From Escherichia phage vB_EcoM-ZQ3, in the sequence record MW630116.1: 64,000 bases of DNA; one strand, 5' to 3'. This document shows, piece by piece, positions 84 through 60,715 of this stretch (position 1 is its first letter; each line of letters starts with the position of its first letter). Below the pieces are notes generated by a model. The model worked only from the letters and a program-made list of their open reading frames with translations, made no database searches and was not told where the DNA came from. A program made the translations under genes and the position numbers.

Positions 84-1082
84 ATGTTTAAGAAATACAG
101 CAGTCTTGAAAACCACTACAACTCTAAGTTTATTGAAAAACTCTACACTAATGGTTTGACTACTGGTGTTTGGGTAGCACGTGAGAAAATCCATGGGACT
201 AACTTCTCGTTAATAATTGAACGTGACAACGTCACATGCGCCAAGCGCACAGGCCCTATTCTTCCAGCAGAAGATTTTTATGGTTATGAAGTCGTACTCA
301 AGAAGTATGATAAAGCTATTAAAGCCGTTCAGGAATTAATGCACACAGTTCGAGCCGTATCATATCAAGTATTCGGTGAATTCGCTGGCGGTGGAATCCA
401 GAAAGGTGTTGACTACGGTGAAAAAGATTTTTATGTGTTCGATATCCTTATCAATACAGAAAGTGGTGATAATACGTATTTGACCGATTACGAAATGCAA
501 GATTTTTGTAATGAATTCGGTTTTAAAATGGCACCAATGCTTGGTCGTGGAACATTTGATTCTCTTATCATGATTCCAAATGACCTTGATTCCGTCTTAG
601 CCGCTTATAATGCTACTGCGTCAGAAGACCTTGTAGAAGCAAATAATTGTGTATTTGATGCTAATGTTATTGGCGATAATACGGCAGAAGGTTATGTTCT
701 GAAGCCTTGTTTCCCTAAATGGCTGCCAAACGGTACTCGTGTAGCTATTAAGTGCAAGAACTCTAAATTCAGTGAAAAGAAAAAGTCAGATAAGCCTATT
801 AAAACTCAGGTTCCATTATCCGAAATTGACAAAAACTTGCTTGATGTTCTAGCTTGTTATGTTACATTAAATCGTGTTAATAATGTGATTTCTAAGATTG
901 GGACTGTAACGCCAAAAGATTTTGGCAAAGTGATGGGATTGACTGTTCAAGATATTCTGGAAGAAACTTCTCGTGAAGGTATTGTATTAACATCATCTGA
1001 TAATCCGAATCTTGTTAAGAAAGAATTAGTCCGAATGGTGCAAGATGTTCTGCGTCCTGCATGGATTGAATTAGTATCATAA
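84..1082 (+). CDS. rnlB: RNA ligase 2 (Rnl2)
   Basis: 332 aa ORF; nucleotidyltransferase motif I KIHGTN near N-terminus; collinear with T4 Rnl2 as recalled; RBS GGTGA 5 nt upstream. Confidence 0.9.
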
Positions 1083-2422: not shown

Positions 2423-2430
2423 TATTTATA
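2423..2430 (-). promoter_or_regulatory. T4-type late promoter TATAAATA for gene 24
   Basis: exact TATAAATA on minus strand about 28 nt upstream of gene 24 ATG. Confidence 0.5.
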
Positions 2431-2436
2431 AAGATT

Positions 2437-2466
2437 GTTTACAACGTATTTGGTATGTGATACTAT
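2437..2466 (+). promoter_or_regulatory. early promoter cassette (GTTTAC -35, TACTAT -10)
   Basis: GTTTAC-N18-TACTAT followed by conserved leader TAGACTTATCAACTACAGAGGAG and ATG at 2497; same cassette recurs about 20 times downstream. Confidence 0.5.
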
Positions 2467-2496
2467 AGACTTATCAACTACAGAGGAGTAAACAAA

Positions 2497-2766
2497 ATGA
2501 CTAAAGCACGTTTCTTACGAGACACTTTAAAAGTTCTGGAAGCTGAAGCAGTTAAGTTGGTAGAAAAATATGGTGCAAAAGTTAATGGTAATGCCTTCAA
2601 CAAAGTATGGATGAAAGTTGATTCTGAAGCTCGAGCTAAAGGTTATTGGGCCACTGATAAACTTGCATCATTCAAAAACAAAGATGGTTCTCCTGCATAT
2701 GTCCAAGAAGGTATGCCTAATTGGCAAAATATTTTGAAAACTTACATCGAAATTGCGCAGAAATAA
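2497..2766 (+). CDS. hypothetical small protein (89 aa) encoded opposite to the capsid operon
   Basis: ORF with GAGGAG RBS 8 nt upstream; occupies the 23-24 intergenic position where T4 carries segD. Confidence 0.6.
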   Translation: MTKARFLRDTLKVLEAEAVKLVEKYGAKVNGNAFNKVWMKVDSEARAKGYWATDKLASFKNKDGSPAYVQEGMPNWQNILKTYIEIAQK

Positions 2767-2818: not shown

Positions 2819-4387
2819 TTAGATGCCTTTTACATATACACGGCGGAAGTAAGCGTTCTTACCAAGACTGTTCAGGATAGACGGCATACCGGACTGGATG
2901 CGAGCACCTGGAGCCTGCAGGGAACTTTCAGCAAACGGGTTAACACCGATACCGTAACGAGTTTTAAAGCCCATTACCGGCTGGAAGTTCTTAGGATCGG
3001 AACCACGCAGTGGGGTAAGTGCAACGTAAGGAGCATAGTAAATACCTGCATCCATTTCGTTAGCGCCTTTGTAACCAACGGTGAAGTAATCCTGTTTAGC
3101 ATACTGGTCGATGTATACGCGGTATTTACCACCAAGTACACCGGCAAATACAGACTTAGTAGTGTCGGTATTAAAACCAGAAGCCAGACCCTGTGCAGCG
3201 TAAGAAATACCAGTATCAACCGAAGCCAGTACGTTAACTACGTTACGGGAAGCGATAATGAAGTTACCTTCACCACGACCGGTTTGACGAGCAATTTCAA
3301 CTGCTTCTTTATCAATCTGGAACAACAGAGCTTTAAAGCTTTCACCGGCCCAACGAGCACCACGGATATCAATCGGGTCCTGGAAGTCAAATACACCAGC
3401 TTTAGAACCAACGATATTAGTCATACCAGATTTACCAACCTGAGCGGAGTAGTTAATCCAGTCAACAACTTCACGGTTGATTTCCAGCATAATTTCAGTA
3501 GCAAGAATACCGCTCAGTTCAGCATCAGCATCCATACCATGTACTGCACGGAGGTCTTGTGCCAATTCGATGGAGTAAGCTGCTTTCAACTGACGAGATT
3601 TAGCTTCAATAACTTGTTTGTCGATACGGAAGCCCATTTCGTTCCACGGGTTGTCGGTAGAACCATTGAAGCCTTCCTGAAGTTCAGCGATAGAAGTAGC
3701 CATACCTTCAGCGATTTCTACCAGTGCACCAGCTTCCATTTGTTTCTTAATTTCAGCATCTAATTTAGTTGCATCGGTAGCGCTAGCATCAATTGTTACT
3801 ACAGCGGAAGCTTGTAGATACACAGTACCGGTGTCCTGGAAGAAGTGAGTATAGATATCACCTACAACGGTTTGTGTGCTAGCAGCCAGAGCTGGGAATT
3901 TCTTAGCAGCACCCTGACCAGAGAACATCGCGTCTGGAGCATACATCGGATGGAAAGCTTCTTTAGCGTCAGCAGCGATAGGGTCTTTACCATATACTGC
4001 ACGGAGAGCAAATACCTGACCGGTAGGGCTGTTCATAGGCTGAACACCACAAATATCAAAAGCGATCAGATTAGGAATAGCACGACGAACCATACCCATA
4101 ACTGCCGGCCCAATTTGGGTTACTGCACCAGAGGTTTGACCTGCTGCGATGTTCTGAGCATTATAACCATGGTCCCCACCAATTTCAGCTTCGGTCAAGA
4201 AAGAACCAAATGCCTGAGCGATTTTCTCGTCTTTATATTCAGGGGATACTTCGAAATCTTTTTCCTGGTTTTCGAAGATTTTAGCGATAATAGCCTGCTT
4301 GCTATTAGCGATTTCCGGCAGGCCTTCACCTTCCAGCAGTTCTTTCCATTTGTCTACGAGCTGAGCTTTAGTTTTGATAGTAGTCAT
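2819..4387 (-). CDS. 23: major capsid protein gp23
   Basis: 522 aa; N-terminal propeptide region followed by HK97-like fold sequence recalled from T4 gp23; synteny 24-23-22. Confidence 0.97.
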   Translation of the reverse strand: MTTIKTKAQLVDKWKELLEGEGLPEIANSKQAIIAKIFENQEKDFEVSPEYKDEKIAQAFGSFLTEAEIGGDHGYNAQNIAAGQTSGAVTQIGPAVMGMVRRAIPNLIAFDICGVQPMNSPTGQVFALRAVYGKDPIAADAKEAFHPMYAPDAMFSGQGAAKKFPALAASTQTVVGDIYTHFFQDTGTVYLQASAVVTIDASATDATKLDAEIKKQMEAGALVEIAEGMATSIAELQEGFNGSTDNPWNEMGFRIDKQVIEAKSRQLKAAYSIELAQDLRAVHGMDADAELSGILATEIMLEINREVVDWINYSAQVGKSGMTNIVGSKAGVFDFQDPIDIRGARWAGESFKALLFQIDKEAVEIARQTGRGEGNFIIASRNVVNVLASVDTGISYAAQGLASGFNTDTTKSVFAGVLGGKYRVYIDQYAKQDYFTVGYKGANEMDAGIYYAPYVALTPLRGSDPKNFQPVMGFKTRYGIGVNPFAESSLQAPGARIQSGMPSILNSLGKNAYFRRVYVKGI

Positions 4388-4404: not shown

Positions 4405-5217
4405 TTAGAAACGAGATGCGACTTTCGCATATAAACTTACATTAGAATTCTGTTCTACCTGAGTTGTGGTAGTGTCAACTGCTTCGGCAACAAAATTAAG
4501 ACCGGCAGCGTCATTGTCAACTGTATTTATATTTTCGGTAATAGCGGCTTCTTCTTTAGTAGAACCTTTAACCATTTCTACAATAGCAGTTAACTTAGTA
4601 CCAAATGCGTCAGAATAATCCATACCTTCAACCAGGCCAATAACTTTTTCTTTCTGAGATTCAGTCAGGTCTTTTACGCTTTCATTAATAGCGGTTTCAC
4701 GCTGAACGTAATTGATATATGCATCACGTTTGGTAACTTCTTCGAACAAACGAGCGGTTTCTTCTTTATGTTCGGCCAGCTCTTCTTCCATTTCTGCTAC
4801 AACATCTACAGATTCTTCTGGAACAACAACGTTATGTTCAACAAACAGTTCTTTCAGACCACCAAGCATGGATTCGAACAAATCAGCTTTAATGCCTTTA
4901 TCAACTGCGATTTGGTTTTCTGCGAGCCATTCTTTTGCAAGATGGTCTAGGAATTTAGAAGCTTGTTCAGCCAATTTTTTATCAGCTTTCTCTTCAGCAT
5001 CTTCTTTGGCCTTTTCAACTTCTTCTTCGGCCTTTTCGGCGATGGCTTTGATATGAGATTCAGCCAGTTTGACTGCTTCCTGCTTAACGGTGGCTTCGAA
5101 TACAGTGCTGAAATTAGCTTTAACGTCCGGAGACAGTTCTACTGATTCGAAAACACTATTAAGAGCAACTGAAGTCTCGATGTTTTGAGCTTCTTTCAAA
5201 AGTTGTTCTTTGATCAT
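4405..5217 (-). CDS. 22: prohead core scaffold protein gp22
   Basis: 270 aa, highly acidic/helical, Glu/Lys-rich; position between 21 and 23. Confidence 0.9.
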   Translation of the reverse strand: MIKEQLLKEAQNIETSVALNSVFESVELSPDVKANFSTVFEATVKQEAVKLAESHIKAIAEKAEEEVEKAKEDAEEKADKKLAEQASKFLDHLAKEWLAENQIAVDKGIKADLFESMLGGLKELFVEHNVVVPEESVDVVAEMEEELAEHKEETARLFEEVTKRDAYINYVQRETAINESVKDLTESQKEKVIGLVEGMDYSDAFGTKLTAIVEMVKGSTKEEAAITENINTVDNDAAGLNFVAEAVDTTTTQVEQNSNVSLYAKVASRF

Positions 5218-5250: not shown

Positions 5251-5898
5251 TTATAATGCTTTTAAACTCTCTGCGAGAGCTTTAAATGCTTCATCAGCAC
5301 TGTTTTTGGTGGTTTCCACCGAATTTTCTGATTCTGATTCTGATATTTGTTTAGGAGTAACCCAAGCATCTGGAGCAGAAGGTCCCCATACGGCATCTAC
5401 GCCGACGGTTAATTTAAATCCTTCGTTCACGATACGGTACCCTTTATTGGTGTCGGTTAAAGAACCAAGACCACGAGAGGAAACACCTGGAATCCAACCA
5501 GCTCGTATATTAGCAGCTAATTTATCACCGGGACCATGGTCGCCTTCAATAATTCTAGCACGTCCATATACATCGTTTCCTTTCCACCACATATCTTCAA
5601 TAATGATAGCGGCTTGCATGGGGTCAACATTTGCACGAGGTGGATGGTTTAATTCTCCAAGGGCTTGTTTGGTTTCGACTTGTTCTTTAATATAGTCACT
5701 TACTGCTTTTTCCAAAACGCGTTTAGGATATAAACGTTTATTTCGGTTAACAACCTCTGCCTGAAGAAAAATACCTTCTATATAAAGCCCTGGTTTTAAG
5801 CCAGAATCTTTTCCATCATGAGATTCCAACATTGGAACGCCATCAATAATCTCACCGGGTTGACCCCAAGTTTCAATAAGTAACTCGGGTTTATTCAT
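5251..5898 (-). CDS. 21: prohead core protease gp21
   Basis: 215 aa; strong match to recalled T4 gp21 sequence; synteny. Confidence 0.92.
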   Translation of the reverse strand: MNKPELLIETWGQPGEIIDGVPMLESHDGKDSGLKPGLYIEGIFLQAEVVNRNKRLYPKRVLEKAVSDYIKEQVETKQALGELNHPPRANVDPMQAAIIIEDMWWKGNDVYGRARIIEGDHGPGDKLAANIRAGWIPGVSSRGLGSLTDTNKGYRIVNEGFKLTVGVDAVWGPSAPDAWVTPKQISESESENSVETTKNSADEAFKALAESLKAL

Positions 5899-22121: not shown

Positions 22122-22153
22122 AATTCTGCCTTTTGTTGTCCGATATTATATTC

Positions 22154-22161
22154 TATTTATA
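22154..22161 (-). promoter_or_regulatory. late promoter TATAAATA for gene 9
   Basis: exact TATAAATA on minus strand 34 nt upstream of gene 9 ATG. Confidence 0.5.
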
Positions 22162-22172
22162 GATACAAAAAT

Positions 22173-22190
22173 GGGAGCCCGAAGGCTCCC
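22173..22190 (-). terminator. hairpin GGGAGCC-CGAA-GGCTCCC after gene 8
   Basis: perfect 7-bp stem with tetraloop immediately downstream of gene 8 stop. Confidence 0.4.
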
Positions 22191-22193
22191 TAA

Positions 22194-23198
22194 TTAAAAC
22201 ATAAACAAAATGTTAATTTCTTCTGTTTGGTCCATTGCCATAATAACAGGTGGTCGGTTTTCCATATAAATCATTTCACCGGAATGACGCTGCAGATCTC
22301 TAGGGTCGTAATAATCCTTTTCTGCTTTAACATTAGGGTCATTTGGATTTTTCTTAGCTTCTAACGGGTTTGTGATAATTGATATCTGTCTAAAACCCTT
22401 GTTACCAGGCAAAGCTGCCTCAGGGAAATAAACAGAATCAAAATATGCTTTAAACCGCATCGTATTAGCTTTAACACGGTAAATCAAGCCGTAGTCATCT
22501 TGTTGCCAAGTTAAGTTATTTTCATATCCCCAACGGGCGGGGTCTTCTTTAATTTCTTCCGGCCATGGAACTACAAGATATTCGTTAGTGCAACGGTTAA
22601 TTGACACATCGGCAGGAATCTCATAAAGATACTCCCAAATATATCCATCACCGGTTTCGATAACCCCATTAGCATCGCCTCTGCCTTCAGGAGGAGACAT
22701 AGAACGAACAGACGGAGTCCATTTACCACCTAATTTAAGACATTCATCTTTATTATCTAAAGATTCTATTGAACAGAGCCCTACATCAGGGACATCTAAA
22801 CAACGGTAAATTAACCAACCAGCTCCAACTTCTGTCGCGTTGTACGGAGCAGTATTACATGCGACTATATCGTTAATTCTAAACGTGTAAGGGTCTGGAT
22901 ATCGCACATCTCCCCAATCACGTCTAGGAATAACAGAATCTAACATTGAAGGTAAAACTTTAACTGTACCCATCATATGGGTCCACATATCAGTAACACC
23001 AAGAACAGAATCTGTAGGATAAGGCGGGGCGAAGCCCACCTCATTTTCATTTGACGCCCAAGGCTCTGAACGTCCAAACGTAATATAAATGGAGTTCTTA
23101 TCATCTCCATCCCCAACTGAATTATAAAAATTCAGCATTTTCTCTGTTCTAAATTTTGATGTAACTATTGCACGATAGATAACACTTGAATCATTCAT
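22194..23198 (-). CDS. 8: baseplate wedge protein gp8
   Basis: 334 aa, same length as T4 gp8; synteny. Confidence 0.9.
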   Translation of the reverse strand: MNDSSVIYRAIVTSKFRTEKMLNFYNSVGDGDDKNSIYITFGRSEPWASNENEVGFAPPYPTDSVLGVTDMWTHMMGTVKVLPSMLDSVIPRRDWGDVRYPDPYTFRINDIVACNTAPYNATEVGAGWLIYRCLDVPDVGLCSIESLDNKDECLKLGGKWTPSVRSMSPPEGRGDANGVIETGDGYIWEYLYEIPADVSINRCTNEYLVVPWPEEIKEDPARWGYENNLTWQQDDYGLIYRVKANTMRFKAYFDSVYFPEAALPGNKGFRQISIITNPLEAKKNPNDPNVKAEKDYYDPRDLQRHSGEMIYMENRPPVIMAMDQTEEINILFMF

Positions 23199-40391: not shown

Positions 40392-40895
40392 ATGAGTCTT
40401 TACACTGAACTGAATAAAAAATCTGAAGAATCCGCTGAAACTATTTTTAAAAACGTGCAAAAGCGTATTTTAGAAAAGATGTATAACACTGCAGCTAAAG
40501 GTGAAAAATCTTGCCGGTTTCCGATGAGGTGTTCTTCCGATTTATGCGCAAATACTATTGAATGGCTGGAAAGTGAAGGTCTTACGGTAGAGAAAAACCC
40601 GGCGTCTTCTATTGACAGTGAATCATATATTAGTATTTCTTGGGATAAATCAAGGGTAGAAGAGAAAGATGGTGATTGGGTTGTAGATGTTAAAACTTCT
40701 GATGGCGGACGTTCTGTTGAAGTTTCAGCTGTAGTTAAAGGTACCCACGAACAAAGGACTTGGGGTTGGGGTGGTGAAGAAAAAGAAATTGTTCTTAGTG
40801 TGATTGCCAGGTCAACTAGTAATAAAATTGCACAAAGCATCATTGACGCTGCAATTGCTGAAGCAGAAAAAATTTGCAAAATTAAAAATAAATGA
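40392..40895 (+). CDS. hypothetical protein
   Basis: 167 aa; GAGGAG RBS. Confidence 0.55.
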   Translation: MSLYTELNKKSEESAETIFKNVQKRILEKMYNTAAKGEKSCRFPMRCSSDLCANTIEWLESEGLTVEKNPASSIDSESYISISWDKSRVEEKDGDWVVDVKTSDGGRSVEVSAVVKGTHEQRTWGWGGEEKEIVLSVIARSTSNKIAQSIIDAAIAEAEKICKIKNK

Positions 40896-40934
40896 TGTAC
40901 AAACGCCAAGGACGGTGTTACTATAGACCTATCA
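40895..40934 (+). promoter_or_regulatory. early promoter cassette (variant -35 TGTACA)
   Basis: TGTACA...TACTAT then conserved leader TAGACCTATCAACTACAGAGGAG. Confidence 0.4.
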
Positions 40935-40953
40935 ACTACAGAGGAGAAACAAA

Positions 40954-41181
40954 ATGGCTACAGTTAGTATTGATGTCGTTGATTATGAATACACCGAAGA
41001 AGTTATTCGCAGCCGTCACCCTGAAGTTCGTATCGATTCAGTCCAAGATTCCAAGTTTTGGACAACCGAGCTTAATCTGAGTGGTCCTTATGAAGCTGTT
41101 AAGAAGTTCATGGTTGAAGAATACTGCGAAGGCATGCACCCCGAAGACGCCGAGTTTTATGTCAATTTGATTAAAAAATAA
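40954..41181 (+). CDS. hypothetical protein
   Basis: 75 aa acidic protein; GAGGAG RBS. Confidence 0.5.
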   Translation: MATVSIDVVDYEYTEEVIRSRHPEVRIDSVQDSKFWTTELNLSGPYEAVKKFMVEEYCEGMHPEDAEFYVNLIKK

Positions 41182-48576: not shown

Positions 48577-48615
48577 GTTTACTTCCTCCAAGGGTTTTGA
48601 TACTATACATTCATC
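48577..48615 (+). promoter_or_regulatory. early promoter cassette
   Basis: GTTTAC-N18-TACTAT; spacer CCTCCAAG pairs with downstream CTTGGAGG containing the denV SD. Confidence 0.5.
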
Positions 48616-48633
48616 AACTACTTGGAGGAAATT

Positions 48634-49047
48634 ATGACTCGTATCAATTTAACACTTGTTTCTGAACTGACCGACCAACATCTTATGGCTGAGTATCGTG
48701 AATTACCACGCGTATTTGGTGCAGTCCGTAAACATGTTCAAAACGGTAAACGTGTAAAGGATTTTAAAATCTCCCCGACATTTATCTTAGGCACAGGTCA
48801 TGTAACATTCTTTTACGACAAACTCGAATTTTTACGTTTACGTCAAATCGAGCTAATCGCTGAATGCTTGAAACGTGGTTTCAAAATCAAGGACACGACT
48901 GTCCAAGATATTTCCGACATCCCTGCCGAATTTCGTAATAATTATGTCCCGTCCGAAGCGTCCATTGCGATAAGTCAAGCACGCTTAGACGAAAAAATTG
49001 CTCAACGTCCTACTTGGTACAAATACTATGGTAAATCAATTTACTAA
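48634..49047 (+). CDS. denV: endonuclease V (pyrimidine dimer DNA glycosylase)
   Basis: 137 aa from [34 protein letters not shown]; matches recalled T4 DenV. Confidence 0.92.
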
Positions 49048-51706: not shown

Positions 51707-51745
51707 TTTACTTCTCCTCTAGATGTGTTACTATAGACCTGTCAA
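51706..51745 (+). promoter_or_regulatory. early promoter cassette with anti-SD arm
   Basis: GTTTAC-N17-TACTAT; CTCCTCTAG (51714-51722) is perfectly complementary to CTAGAGGAG (51746-51754) containing the SD. Confidence 0.5.
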
Positions 51746-51762
51746 CTAGAGGAGAAATCAAA

Positions 51763-52221
51763 ATGACTATCAATTCAGACGTTTTTATCCGCCGCAATAA
51801 ACTCCGTCGAATCTTTGAAACGGAGTTCCGCAAAATAAATGCCAGTATAAAAGATGCTGCAAAGTCTCTTGGACTACCAGGCTTTCATATCAAGTATTCT
51901 CAACATCTCTTAGATCGTGCCATCCAGAGAGAAATAGATGAGAACTACGTTTTTGAATTATTTCGTAAAGTAAAAAATCATGTTAAAGAAGTTGCAGAAT
52001 TTTTATCAATGCCGGCACGTCCGGATGTTGATGAAGATTTTGTCGAAGGCGTCGAATATCGCCCAGGCCGTTTAGAAATAACTGATGGAAATCTTTGGTT
52101 AGGACTTACAGTTTGTCGCGAAAATCCAGCATTCAAAATGAAGACTCTTCAATGCAGAATGGCTATTATTAACAGTAAACGACTACCAGGAAAAGCTTCT
52201 AAAGCAGTGATTAAAATCTAG
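51763..52221 (+). CDS. regB: RegB-like site-specific endoribonuclease
   Basis: 152 aa; N-terminus MTINSDVFIRRNKLRR and C-terminus RLPGKASKAVIK as recalled for T4 RegB; position between denV and tk. Confidence 0.6.
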   Translation: MTINSDVFIRRNKLRRIFETEFRKINASIKDAAKSLGLPGFHIKYSQHLLDRAIQREIDENYVFELFRKVKNHVKEVAEFLSMPARPDVDEDFVEGVEYRPGRLEITDGNLWLGLTVCRENPAFKMKTLQCRMAIINSKRLPGKASKAVIKI

Positions 52222-60217: not shown

Positions 60218-60257
60218 TGTTTACAAGGTCTATGGTTGTGTTATTATAGACCTATCA
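60218..60257 (+). promoter_or_regulatory. early promoter cassette
   Basis: GTTTAC with AGGTCTA/TAGACCT inverted repeat. Confidence 0.5.
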
Positions 60258-60274
60258 ACTACTGGAGGTAAAAC

Positions 60275-60715
60275 ATGAACGCTAAAGATATTTTCAACCT
60301 GGTAAATTATAACGACGGTAAATTTAAATCTGAAGCACAAAGCAAGTTCTTTAATGACGTTGCTTATGGTAACGAGATTACCGTAGACGGAGGTCAGATT
60401 TTCAAATCTCGCTGGAATTGGATTGTTATCATCGATTCAGTTGGAATTGTGGAAGTCTACAAAAACACTAACAAAAAACGTACATTATTCTGGTCTCGTG
60501 AAACTAACGAGCAGTACAAAAAGGATAAAGCATCTCGTTTATCCAAAGTAACCCAGGAAGATATCGAGTTTATCAAGAAAGATATCGAGATGTACGAAAA
60601 TTTAATCGCTGAAGACCAGGCAGTACTCGATAAGTTTGATGAAATTAAAGCTTCTCGTGAAATCCCTGACTTCATGAAAGAAACAGTAAATGAACGATAC
60701 GCTCTCACTTCATAA
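60275..60715 (+). CDS. hypothetical protein
   Basis: 146 aa; GGAGG RBS. Confidence 0.55.
   Translation: MNAKDIFNLVNYNDGKFKSEAQSKFFNDVAYGNEITVDGGQIFKSRWNWIVIIDSVGIVEVYKNTNKKRTLFWSRETNEQYKKDKASRLSKVTQEDIEFIKKDIEMYENLIAEDQAVLDKFDEIKASREIPDFMKETVNERYALTS

Follow-up and report, generated by a model that had tools for sequence, protein, structure and literature searches.

Organization of the gene 23/24 junction

The window analysed here is the whole 64,000-nucleotide stretch of Escherichia phage vB_EcoM-ZQ3 (MW630116.1), a Mosigvirus (RB69-like), and its first 6 kb hold a head-gene block of T4 type in reversed orientation. In this block, rnlB (84–1082, plus strand) is followed on the minus strand by gene 24, encoding the capsid vertex protein (1112–2395), gene 23, encoding the major capsid protein (2819–4387), gene 22 (4405–5217) and gene 21 (5251–5898). 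Between the convergent rnlB and gene 24 lies a perfect bidirectional terminator hairpin, AAAGGGACC-TTAC-GGTCCCTTT (1087–1108), that scored on both strands. The gap between genes 24 and 23 holds, on the opposite strand, an intact ORF of 89 aa with an ATG start (2497–2766, plus strand), hereafter called ORF89. The 451 bases around it were 99% identical to many Mosigvirus coliphages, and the region was covered over its full length at 95–99% identity by 120 Mosigvirus records.

The gap is bordered by two resident features. On the left, next to gene 24, is the late-promoter box of that gene, TATAAATA (2423–2430, minus strand), which stands back-to-back with the early promoter of ORF89 and is separated from its GTTTACA by 6 nt. 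The box was invariant in a 10-genome alignment, is also found in the empty sites of phages T2 and KPV15, and was predicted in RB69 as Pl:109573 (Nolan et al. 2006, Virol J 3:30). On the right, next to gene 23, is a hairpin with the minus-strand reading TGGGAGAC-TTCG-GTCTCCCA (loop CGAA on the plus strand) followed by TTTTTGGTTTT (2776–2795), the intrinsic terminator of gene 23. A reading made from the sequence alone, without database searches (the sequence-only reading), had placed ORF89 inside the late capsid operon. Because the gene-23 terminator and the gene-24 late-promoter box part genes 23 and 24, ORF89 lies between two late transcription units and not within one operon.

The hairpin downstream of ORF89 belongs to gene 23

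The same reading had the early cassette closed by a GC hairpin of its own. The hairpin in question lies beyond the coordinates given there (2437–2766), and a terminator scan recognized an intrinsic terminator solely in the minus-strand direction, where the T-run faces gene 23. A U-run after the hairpin was sought on the plus strand for the ORF89 transcript by scan and folding and was absent; AAAATAAG follows instead. The same kind of hairpin stands 3' of gene 23 in the gene-less gaps of T2 and KPV15. The RB69 terminator at 109234–109251, on the gene-23 strand, was named '23-><-RB69ORF188c' (Nolan et al. 2006, Virol J 3:30), and the gene-23 terminator was reported to be conserved in 6/6 T4-like genomes compared in 2006. 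The minus-strand T-run, the presence of the hairpin in empty sites and its conservation across those six genomes establish that it is the resident terminator of gene 23 and no component of the early cassette.

In phage VR7, the hairpin at this site has an A-run and a T-run on its two sides; judged from these runs, it looks bidirectional and seemingly able to stop plus-strand transcripts. A similar hairpin in the window (22171–22190) was considered as evidence that the hairpin is part of a repeated cassette and was rejected, since it merely marks the late junction of genes 8 and 9, with the same layout of late box and hairpin. This junction (22150–22196) is organized like an empty 23/24 site, with the late box TATAAATA on the minus strand, about 11 nt, and the hairpin GGGAGCC-CGAA-GGCTCCC, which abuts the stop codon of the upstream late gene.

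ORF89 is preceded by a T4-type early promoter and a repeated leader

A T4-type early (sigma-70) promoter was found at 2437–2466 (plus strand), consisting of GTTTACA (2437–2443), a 17-nt spacer, TG (2458–2459) and the −10 hexamer TACTAT (2461–2466). With TTTACA (2438–2443) as the −35 hexamer, a sigma-70 scan gave 9/12 matches with the TG present and a predicted +1 near 2473. Generic sigma-70 matches were no rarer than chance in this AT-rich DNA (6 found versus 9.2 expected from shuffles), and the case for the promoter therefore rests on the extended T4-type motif, all parts of which were found: GTTTAC, a spacer of 17 ± 1 nt, TAnnAT, the upstream TG and an A/T-rich tract (TATTTATAAAGATT). The promoter position was conserved across Mosigvirus, Dhakavirus, Gaprivervirus and T4. 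Its RB69 counterpart, predicted by Nolan et al. (2006, Virol J 3:30), is Pe:109605, with an early-promoter HMM score of 29.9; the RB69 early-promoter consensus of that study is already C-rich at −3 to −1. Thus, a small early-cassette-driven ORF on the opposite strand at the 23/24 junction, as originally noticed, is borne out.

The initial transcribed region and leader (AGACTTATCAACTACA, 2467–2496, plus strand) were also conserved and carry the SD sequence GAGGAG (2483–2488), 8 nt 5' of the ORF89 ATG. By analogy with T4 biology, the GGAG in this leader is a candidate RegB cleavage site.

The claim that this cassette and leader recur elsewhere in the genome was upheld. The 18-nt −10/leader string TACTATAGACYTATCAAC occurred 8 times in the window at ≤3 mismatches, all on the plus strand, versus 0.13 expected, and the combination of GTTTAC and TACTATAGACYTATCAAC recurred on the plus strand only, between 35 and 64 kb. 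Copies lie 5' of denV (48578–48636), of regB (51707–51765; the gene is present at 51763) and of a 146-aa ORF of phrog_2274 (60220–60277), all on the plus strand. The closest paralogous copy of the −10, leader and SD (40919–40956, plus strand) is near-identical to that of ORF89 from the −10 to the ATG and precedes a 75-aa ORF (phrog_1764), yet its −35 is degenerate (ATGTAC). This combination hints at recent conversion between cassette copies, rather than independent conservation, at 40890–40956. Small early ORFs, too, stand behind copies of the cassette.

ORF89 encodes a conserved protein of phrog_6003

The ORF89 protein is small (10.1 kDa), basic (pI 9.6), hydrophilic and soluble. The profile search proposed in the sequence-only reading identified it as a full-length member of phrog_6003, the family of RB69ORF188c/189c (E 2.1e-45, residues 1–89 on profile positions 1–90 of 90), but gave no domain or structure lead. 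As that reading had noted, the protein carries no endonuclease motif: neither GIY-YIG nor any other was found in Pfam, in which the sole match was a sub-threshold one to DUF4859. No match below E 0.5 was obtained with the ORF89 profile against PDB sequences, and no informative fold match was found for the family. The best AF2 model was a helix-helix-beta hairpin-helix arrangement with a pLDDT of 86.6, the other four of the five models scoring lower, so that one alone was confident. An exhaustive HMM search of 1.84 billion representatives returned family members and one cytochrome-b5-repeat protein, and nothing else. In this 655-aa metagenomic protein (P0013), which has six cytochrome-b5-like repeats, five repeats matched ORF89 residues 40–70 (W-T-x-E-K-L-A-x-Y-N-G-K-N-G-Q-P-A-Y-I). 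We rejected it as a homologue, since a 30-residue motif matched five times is motif-level similarity inflated by repetition.

The T4 internal protein (IP) family is marked by the N-terminal capsid-targeting sequence MKTYQEFIAE.... ORF89 was rejected as a member: its N-terminus is MTKARFLRDT, and its match to phrog_8765 ('internal virion protein') had an E value of 0.09. Two other early-promoter-driven ORFs, at about 35855 and 49152 in the window, start with MKTYKEFI... and MKTYQEFITEA..., resembling the IP targeting sequence.

Homologues of the protein were found by tblastn in about 240 phage records; about 120 of these were of the Mosig type, with ≥80% identity, and a further 120 showed 31–38%. 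The gene is thus conserved in relatives. ORF89 was intact in about 117 of the 120 Mosigvirus records at ≥95% amino-acid identity. In JS98 (Dhakavirus), VR7 (Gaprivervirus), 04086 and three metagenomic T4-like contigs, the homologue is likewise located in the gap of genes 24 and 23 and runs opposite to them. The family comprises 30 protein clusters, whose full-length members have 83–93 aa and are all unnamed. Its distant members outside T4-type phages sit at other loci, among small unannotated ORFs, in an rV5-like Acinetobacter phage, a 141-kb contig, a siphovirus-like contig and a contig with NinX and a primase-polymerase-like gene. We also tried to derive a function from neighbours in these non-T4 contexts and abandoned the attempt, as they are arrays of unannotated small ORFs.

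The homologue in PhAPEC2, annotated as similar to RB69ORF188c, differed from ORF89 only by synonymous changes (pS 0.09, pN 0), and the Dhaka-type allele gave dN/dS values of 0.125–0.14. By these substitution patterns, ORF89 is a real gene under purifying selection (dN/dS approximately 0.13). Disrupted copies occur in RB69 and mogra. In the RB69 reference (NC_004928), two compensating frameshifts split the ORF into ORF189c (29 aa) and ORF188c (41 aa) (1618–1858 of the extract); the first frameshift sits within a cluster of mismatches, and the split may reflect either a true pseudogene or an old sequencing error. Phage mogra carries a truncated copy. Since it is split in RB69 and truncated in mogra, ORF89 is dispensable; these losses are compatible with a weak or niche role, too. 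The GC content of ORF89 (35.9% versus 37.9% for the genome) is typical of the phage, and a foreign, moron-like composition was thus rejected.

The 23/24 junction exists in several states among T-even phages

The sequence-only reading had suggested comparing this junction across T4-like genomes, and the comparison revealed empty, ORF, ORF-plus-endonuclease and segD states. The extra DNA of the window runs from 2431, just past the late box, to about 2766, approximately the stop codon, limits that come close to the 2437–2766 of the sequence-only reading. In T2 and Klebsiella phage KPV15 the slot is empty: genes 24 and 23 are about 83 bp apart, a distance taken up by the late box TATAAATA and the hairpin, which stand about 18 nt apart. 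This short form was also present in most Tequatroviruses and Jiaodaviruses. Most Mosigviruses, JS98 and VR7 carry the promoter and the ORF. In 04086 and in LF82-4 (of the LF82 series), the promoter and ORF are accompanied by a segD-like GIY-YIG endonuclease gene that begins 4 nt past the ORF stop and is followed by the hairpin; this segD-like gene, which 04086 shares with the LF82 series, has 57.5% identity to T4 SegD. T4 itself carries the promoter and segD without the ORF, and the earlier statement that segD lies here was correct; it is on the opposite strand.

The states differ in frequency. segD was carried by 53 of the 921 records that matched the T4 junction. About 38 records had a homing endonuclease gene (HEG) ≥80% identical to that of LF82-4, a count taken from gene similarity rather than site by site, and about 200 records had the ORF without an HEG. 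Gain versus loss at the slot was judged from a handful of genomes.

In RB49 (NC_005066), the gap between genes 23 and 24 measures 740 bp (1866–2605 of the extract) and contains about 500 bp of unannotated DNA, a 50-aa ORF on the same strand and, immediately preceding gene 24, a hairpin terminator. The junction has another occupant here, which is no help in polarising the history of the slot. JS98, VR7 and contigs L007 and L012 (Dhaka/Gapriver-type) have two tandem gene-24 paralogues (24a and 24b) beside the slot; the window and T4 have one.

A module from a Dhakavirus was joined to the early leader in LF82-4

LF82-4 is a Mosigvirus whose flanks were 91–99% identical to the window. Its homology to the window ended at 2488, inside the SD GAGGAG; the Dhaka-type ORF and the HEG follow from the next base, and a match to the window began again at 2763. 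Across the ORF and the initial two thirds of the HEG, the foreign module showed 91–100% identity to Dhakavirus 04086. Near-identity to the window was regained about 100 bases past the start of the hairpin region, and the right junction is probably in the last bases of gene 23.

From the way this module was joined exactly at the SD of the conserved promoter/leader, it follows that the cassette has provided portable homology for swapping modules, in line with the published PeSL model. LF82-4 is the single documented case of an exchange joined at the cassette SD. The homing endonuclease is the more likely driver of the exchange, with the left junction in the conserved leader and the right junction in flanking core sequence, as expected for endonuclease-driven co-conversion. 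The endonuclease gene of LF82-4 (2887–3546 of the extract) was 94–100% identical to that of 04086 over its first two thirds and 64–72% identical over its last third. The last third is presumably the DNA-binding end, and the pattern suggests domain swapping within the HEG.

The allele type of the ORF does not track the flanks. The gp23 and gp24 of the window were both 95% identical to those of T4, and 84% and 70% identical, respectively, to those of JS98. Contig L007 has JS98-like flanks (82% and 71% at the amino-acid level), yet it carries a Mosig-type ORF (61% identity versus 34% for JS98).

A predicted early-type promoter lies upstream of segD in T4

In T4 (NC_000866, about 107,253–107,281, minus strand), TTTACA-17-TATTAT with a TG (10/12 matches) was found directly 5' of segD. 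It lies at the same distance from the late box as the ORF89 promoter. The T4 leader can be aligned with the leaders of phages that carry the ORF, and in this alignment the ORF89 ATG corresponds to the second ATG of segD. A 2010 review stated that a segD-specific promoter could not be identified and assumed very low transcript levels; in the 2022 T4 omics data, segD RNA was classed as early and the protein was detected. The motif and its position point to an early-type promoter for segD, in agreement with the early class of its RNA.

Discussion

We consider it probable that ORF89 and its promoter form a self-contained early transcription unit with a non-essential accessory gene (phrog_6003), situated in a polymorphic slot flanked by the terminator of gene 23 and the late promoter of gene 24. 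Much of this is not new. Annotations or predictions of the gene and its signals in RB69-like phages date back to 2003–2006, which makes the gene largely ordinary: RB69ORF188c/RB69ORF189c (NC_004928) is the same gene at the same locus, with 95% DNA identity to the window, and all three signals (the early promoter, the late promoter of gene 24 and the terminator of gene 23) had been predicted there (Nolan et al. 2006, Virol J 3:30). RB69 differs in that its ORF is broken into 29-aa and 41-aa pieces, whereas the window and nearly all other Mosigviruses have one intact 89-aa ORF. A literature search by the ORF names RB69ORF188c/189c returned the 2006 genome paper alone. Promoter-mediated module shuffling in T4-type phages has likewise been published. 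New are solely the comparison of slot states, the junction in LF82-4 and the promoter of segD.

The T4 segD locus occupies the same slot as ORF89, in the same opposite-strand orientation, is bordered by the same gene-24 late box and gene-23 hairpin, and has a positionally homologous promoter and leader. The payload, however, is different, namely an unrelated 223-aa free-standing homing endonuclease of the GIY-YIG type, a motif that ORF89 does not have. Lambdoid morons are promoter-gene-terminator units inserted between late genes, and the likeness lies in an autonomous unit that places an accessory gene between two structural genes and that only some of the related phages possess. Unlike morons, ORF89 has a phage-typical GC content, borrows its terminator from gene 23 and lies on the opposite strand, and from its sequence it appears to stand behind a phage-type early promoter of a lytic phage rather than to be expressed from a prophage.

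The PeSL cassettes of T4-type hyperplastic regions (Arbiol et al. 2010; Comeau et al. 2014) share with the ORF89 unit conserved early-promoter sequences that are repeated genome-wide and serve as points of homologous exchange for small accessory genes. They differ in having a stem-loop directly 5' of the promoter and in lying in hyperplastic regions, whereas the ORF89 promoter abuts a late promoter, its sole stem-loop, that of gene 23, lies downstream, and core capsid genes flank the site. The 41 nt from the gene-24 start to the promoter were inspected for such a stem-loop; they hold the late box and no GC-rich inverted repeat.

These differences bear on the proposal that the early promoter/leader cassette is itself mobile and recently seeded ORF89 among the capsid genes as a PeSL-type insertion comprising promoter, gene and its own closing hairpin. 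The repetition of the cassette within the window, the existence of empty sites and the left junction of LF82-4 inside the cassette SD favour this proposal, and the PeSL model has been published for RB49/phi1, T4/PST and KVP40/nt-1. However, the hairpin serves as the resident terminator of gene 23 and occurs in empty sites as well, the stem-loop 5' of the promoter that a composite PeSL requires is lacking, and the GC content of ORF89 is that of the genome. The one documented exchange includes a homing endonuclease and has its right junction about 100 bases past the hairpin start. Nor is the insertion recent, as ORF89 is syntenic in three genera at 31–38% amino-acid identity and is therefore old at this site. 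We regard the proposal as unlikely. Of the idea that the cassette seeds genes into structural operons, the polymorphic slot and the SD junction of LF82-4 survive, but nothing shows the cassette itself inserting genes.

A further reading goes beyond the accessory unit that we favour and takes the 23/24 gap as a dedicated T-even landing pad, in which a fixed promoter/leader socket receives swapped payloads (two deeply diverged ORF89 alleles, segD-like endonucleases, or both), and ORF89 as a counter-defence or host-takeover factor whose allelic diversity comes from an arms race. This reading is quite unlikely to hold; if it were true, T4 segD would be expressed from a previously unrecognised early promoter.

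ORF89 might instead be a cargo or partner of a segD-like HEG element (a helper, an immunity factor or a homing-site marker) that is kept by being dragged along in homing. The close linkage of the two genes in 04086 and LF82-4, the approximately 38 records with a related HEG and the joint movement of ORF and HEG into a Mosigvirus speak for such a partnership. It is nevertheless very unlikely, because the ORF occurs without the HEG in about 200 records and T4 has segD without the ORF, and because the family is found in rV5-like phages, siphovirus-like contigs and the contig with NinX and a primase-polymerase-like gene, with no adjacent HEG called.

Highly improbable is a main role at the RNA level, either as antisense to gene 23 past the U-less hairpin or through interference with the divergent gene-24 late promoter, with the ORF secondary. 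The plus strand indeed has no U-tract after the hairpin, the early promoter abuts the late box, and the promoter is retained in T4 although the gene behind it, segD, differs. On the other hand, the protein is under purifying selection, conservation extends to its SD and start codon, and most Tequatroviruses and Jiaodaviruses have no promoter at the site; in VR7, the hairpin with both runs seemingly stops plus-strand transcripts too, which would limit antisense RNA there. That ORF89 is a remnant, either silent or on its way to becoming a pseudogene, would accord with the split ORF of RB69 and the truncated one of mogra but is hardly credible, given about 117 intact copies in 120 Mosigvirus records, a dN/dS near 0.13 and full-length relatives throughout 30 clusters.

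For the accessory early unit that we favour, the following course of events may be envisaged. Host sigma-70 RNA polymerase would fire the ORF89 promoter in the first minutes of infection, a timing indirectly suggested by the early class of segD RNA behind the positionally homologous T4 promoter, and the SD GAGGAG would allow efficient translation and later inactivation by RegB. Transcription of ORF89 would converge on gene 23, but the two would be apart in time because late transcription begins after early-promoter shut-off. On the plus strand, the hairpin without a U-tract would act at most as a weak stop or a 3' stabiliser, and any read-through antisense RNA past it would be ended by Rho. 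By analogy with other small early proteins of T4-type phages, the ORF89 protein would most likely have a host or defence component as its target and would confer a conditional advantage that is not needed for growth on laboratory hosts. Modules would be turned over through homologous recombination, on one side in the conserved promoter/leader and on the other in the hairpin or the flank formed by gene 23; in many cases a segD-like homing endonuclease would drive the process and co-convert flanking sequence.

The comparison thus delimits a slot with precise borders and several states that separates two core capsid genes of T-even phages, and LF82-4 provides one clear inter-genus module transfer joined at the SD of an early leader. 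The ORF89 family, which is small, basic, putatively early and spread across unrelated virulent phages, may be a reasonable candidate for anti-defence and host-takeover screens.
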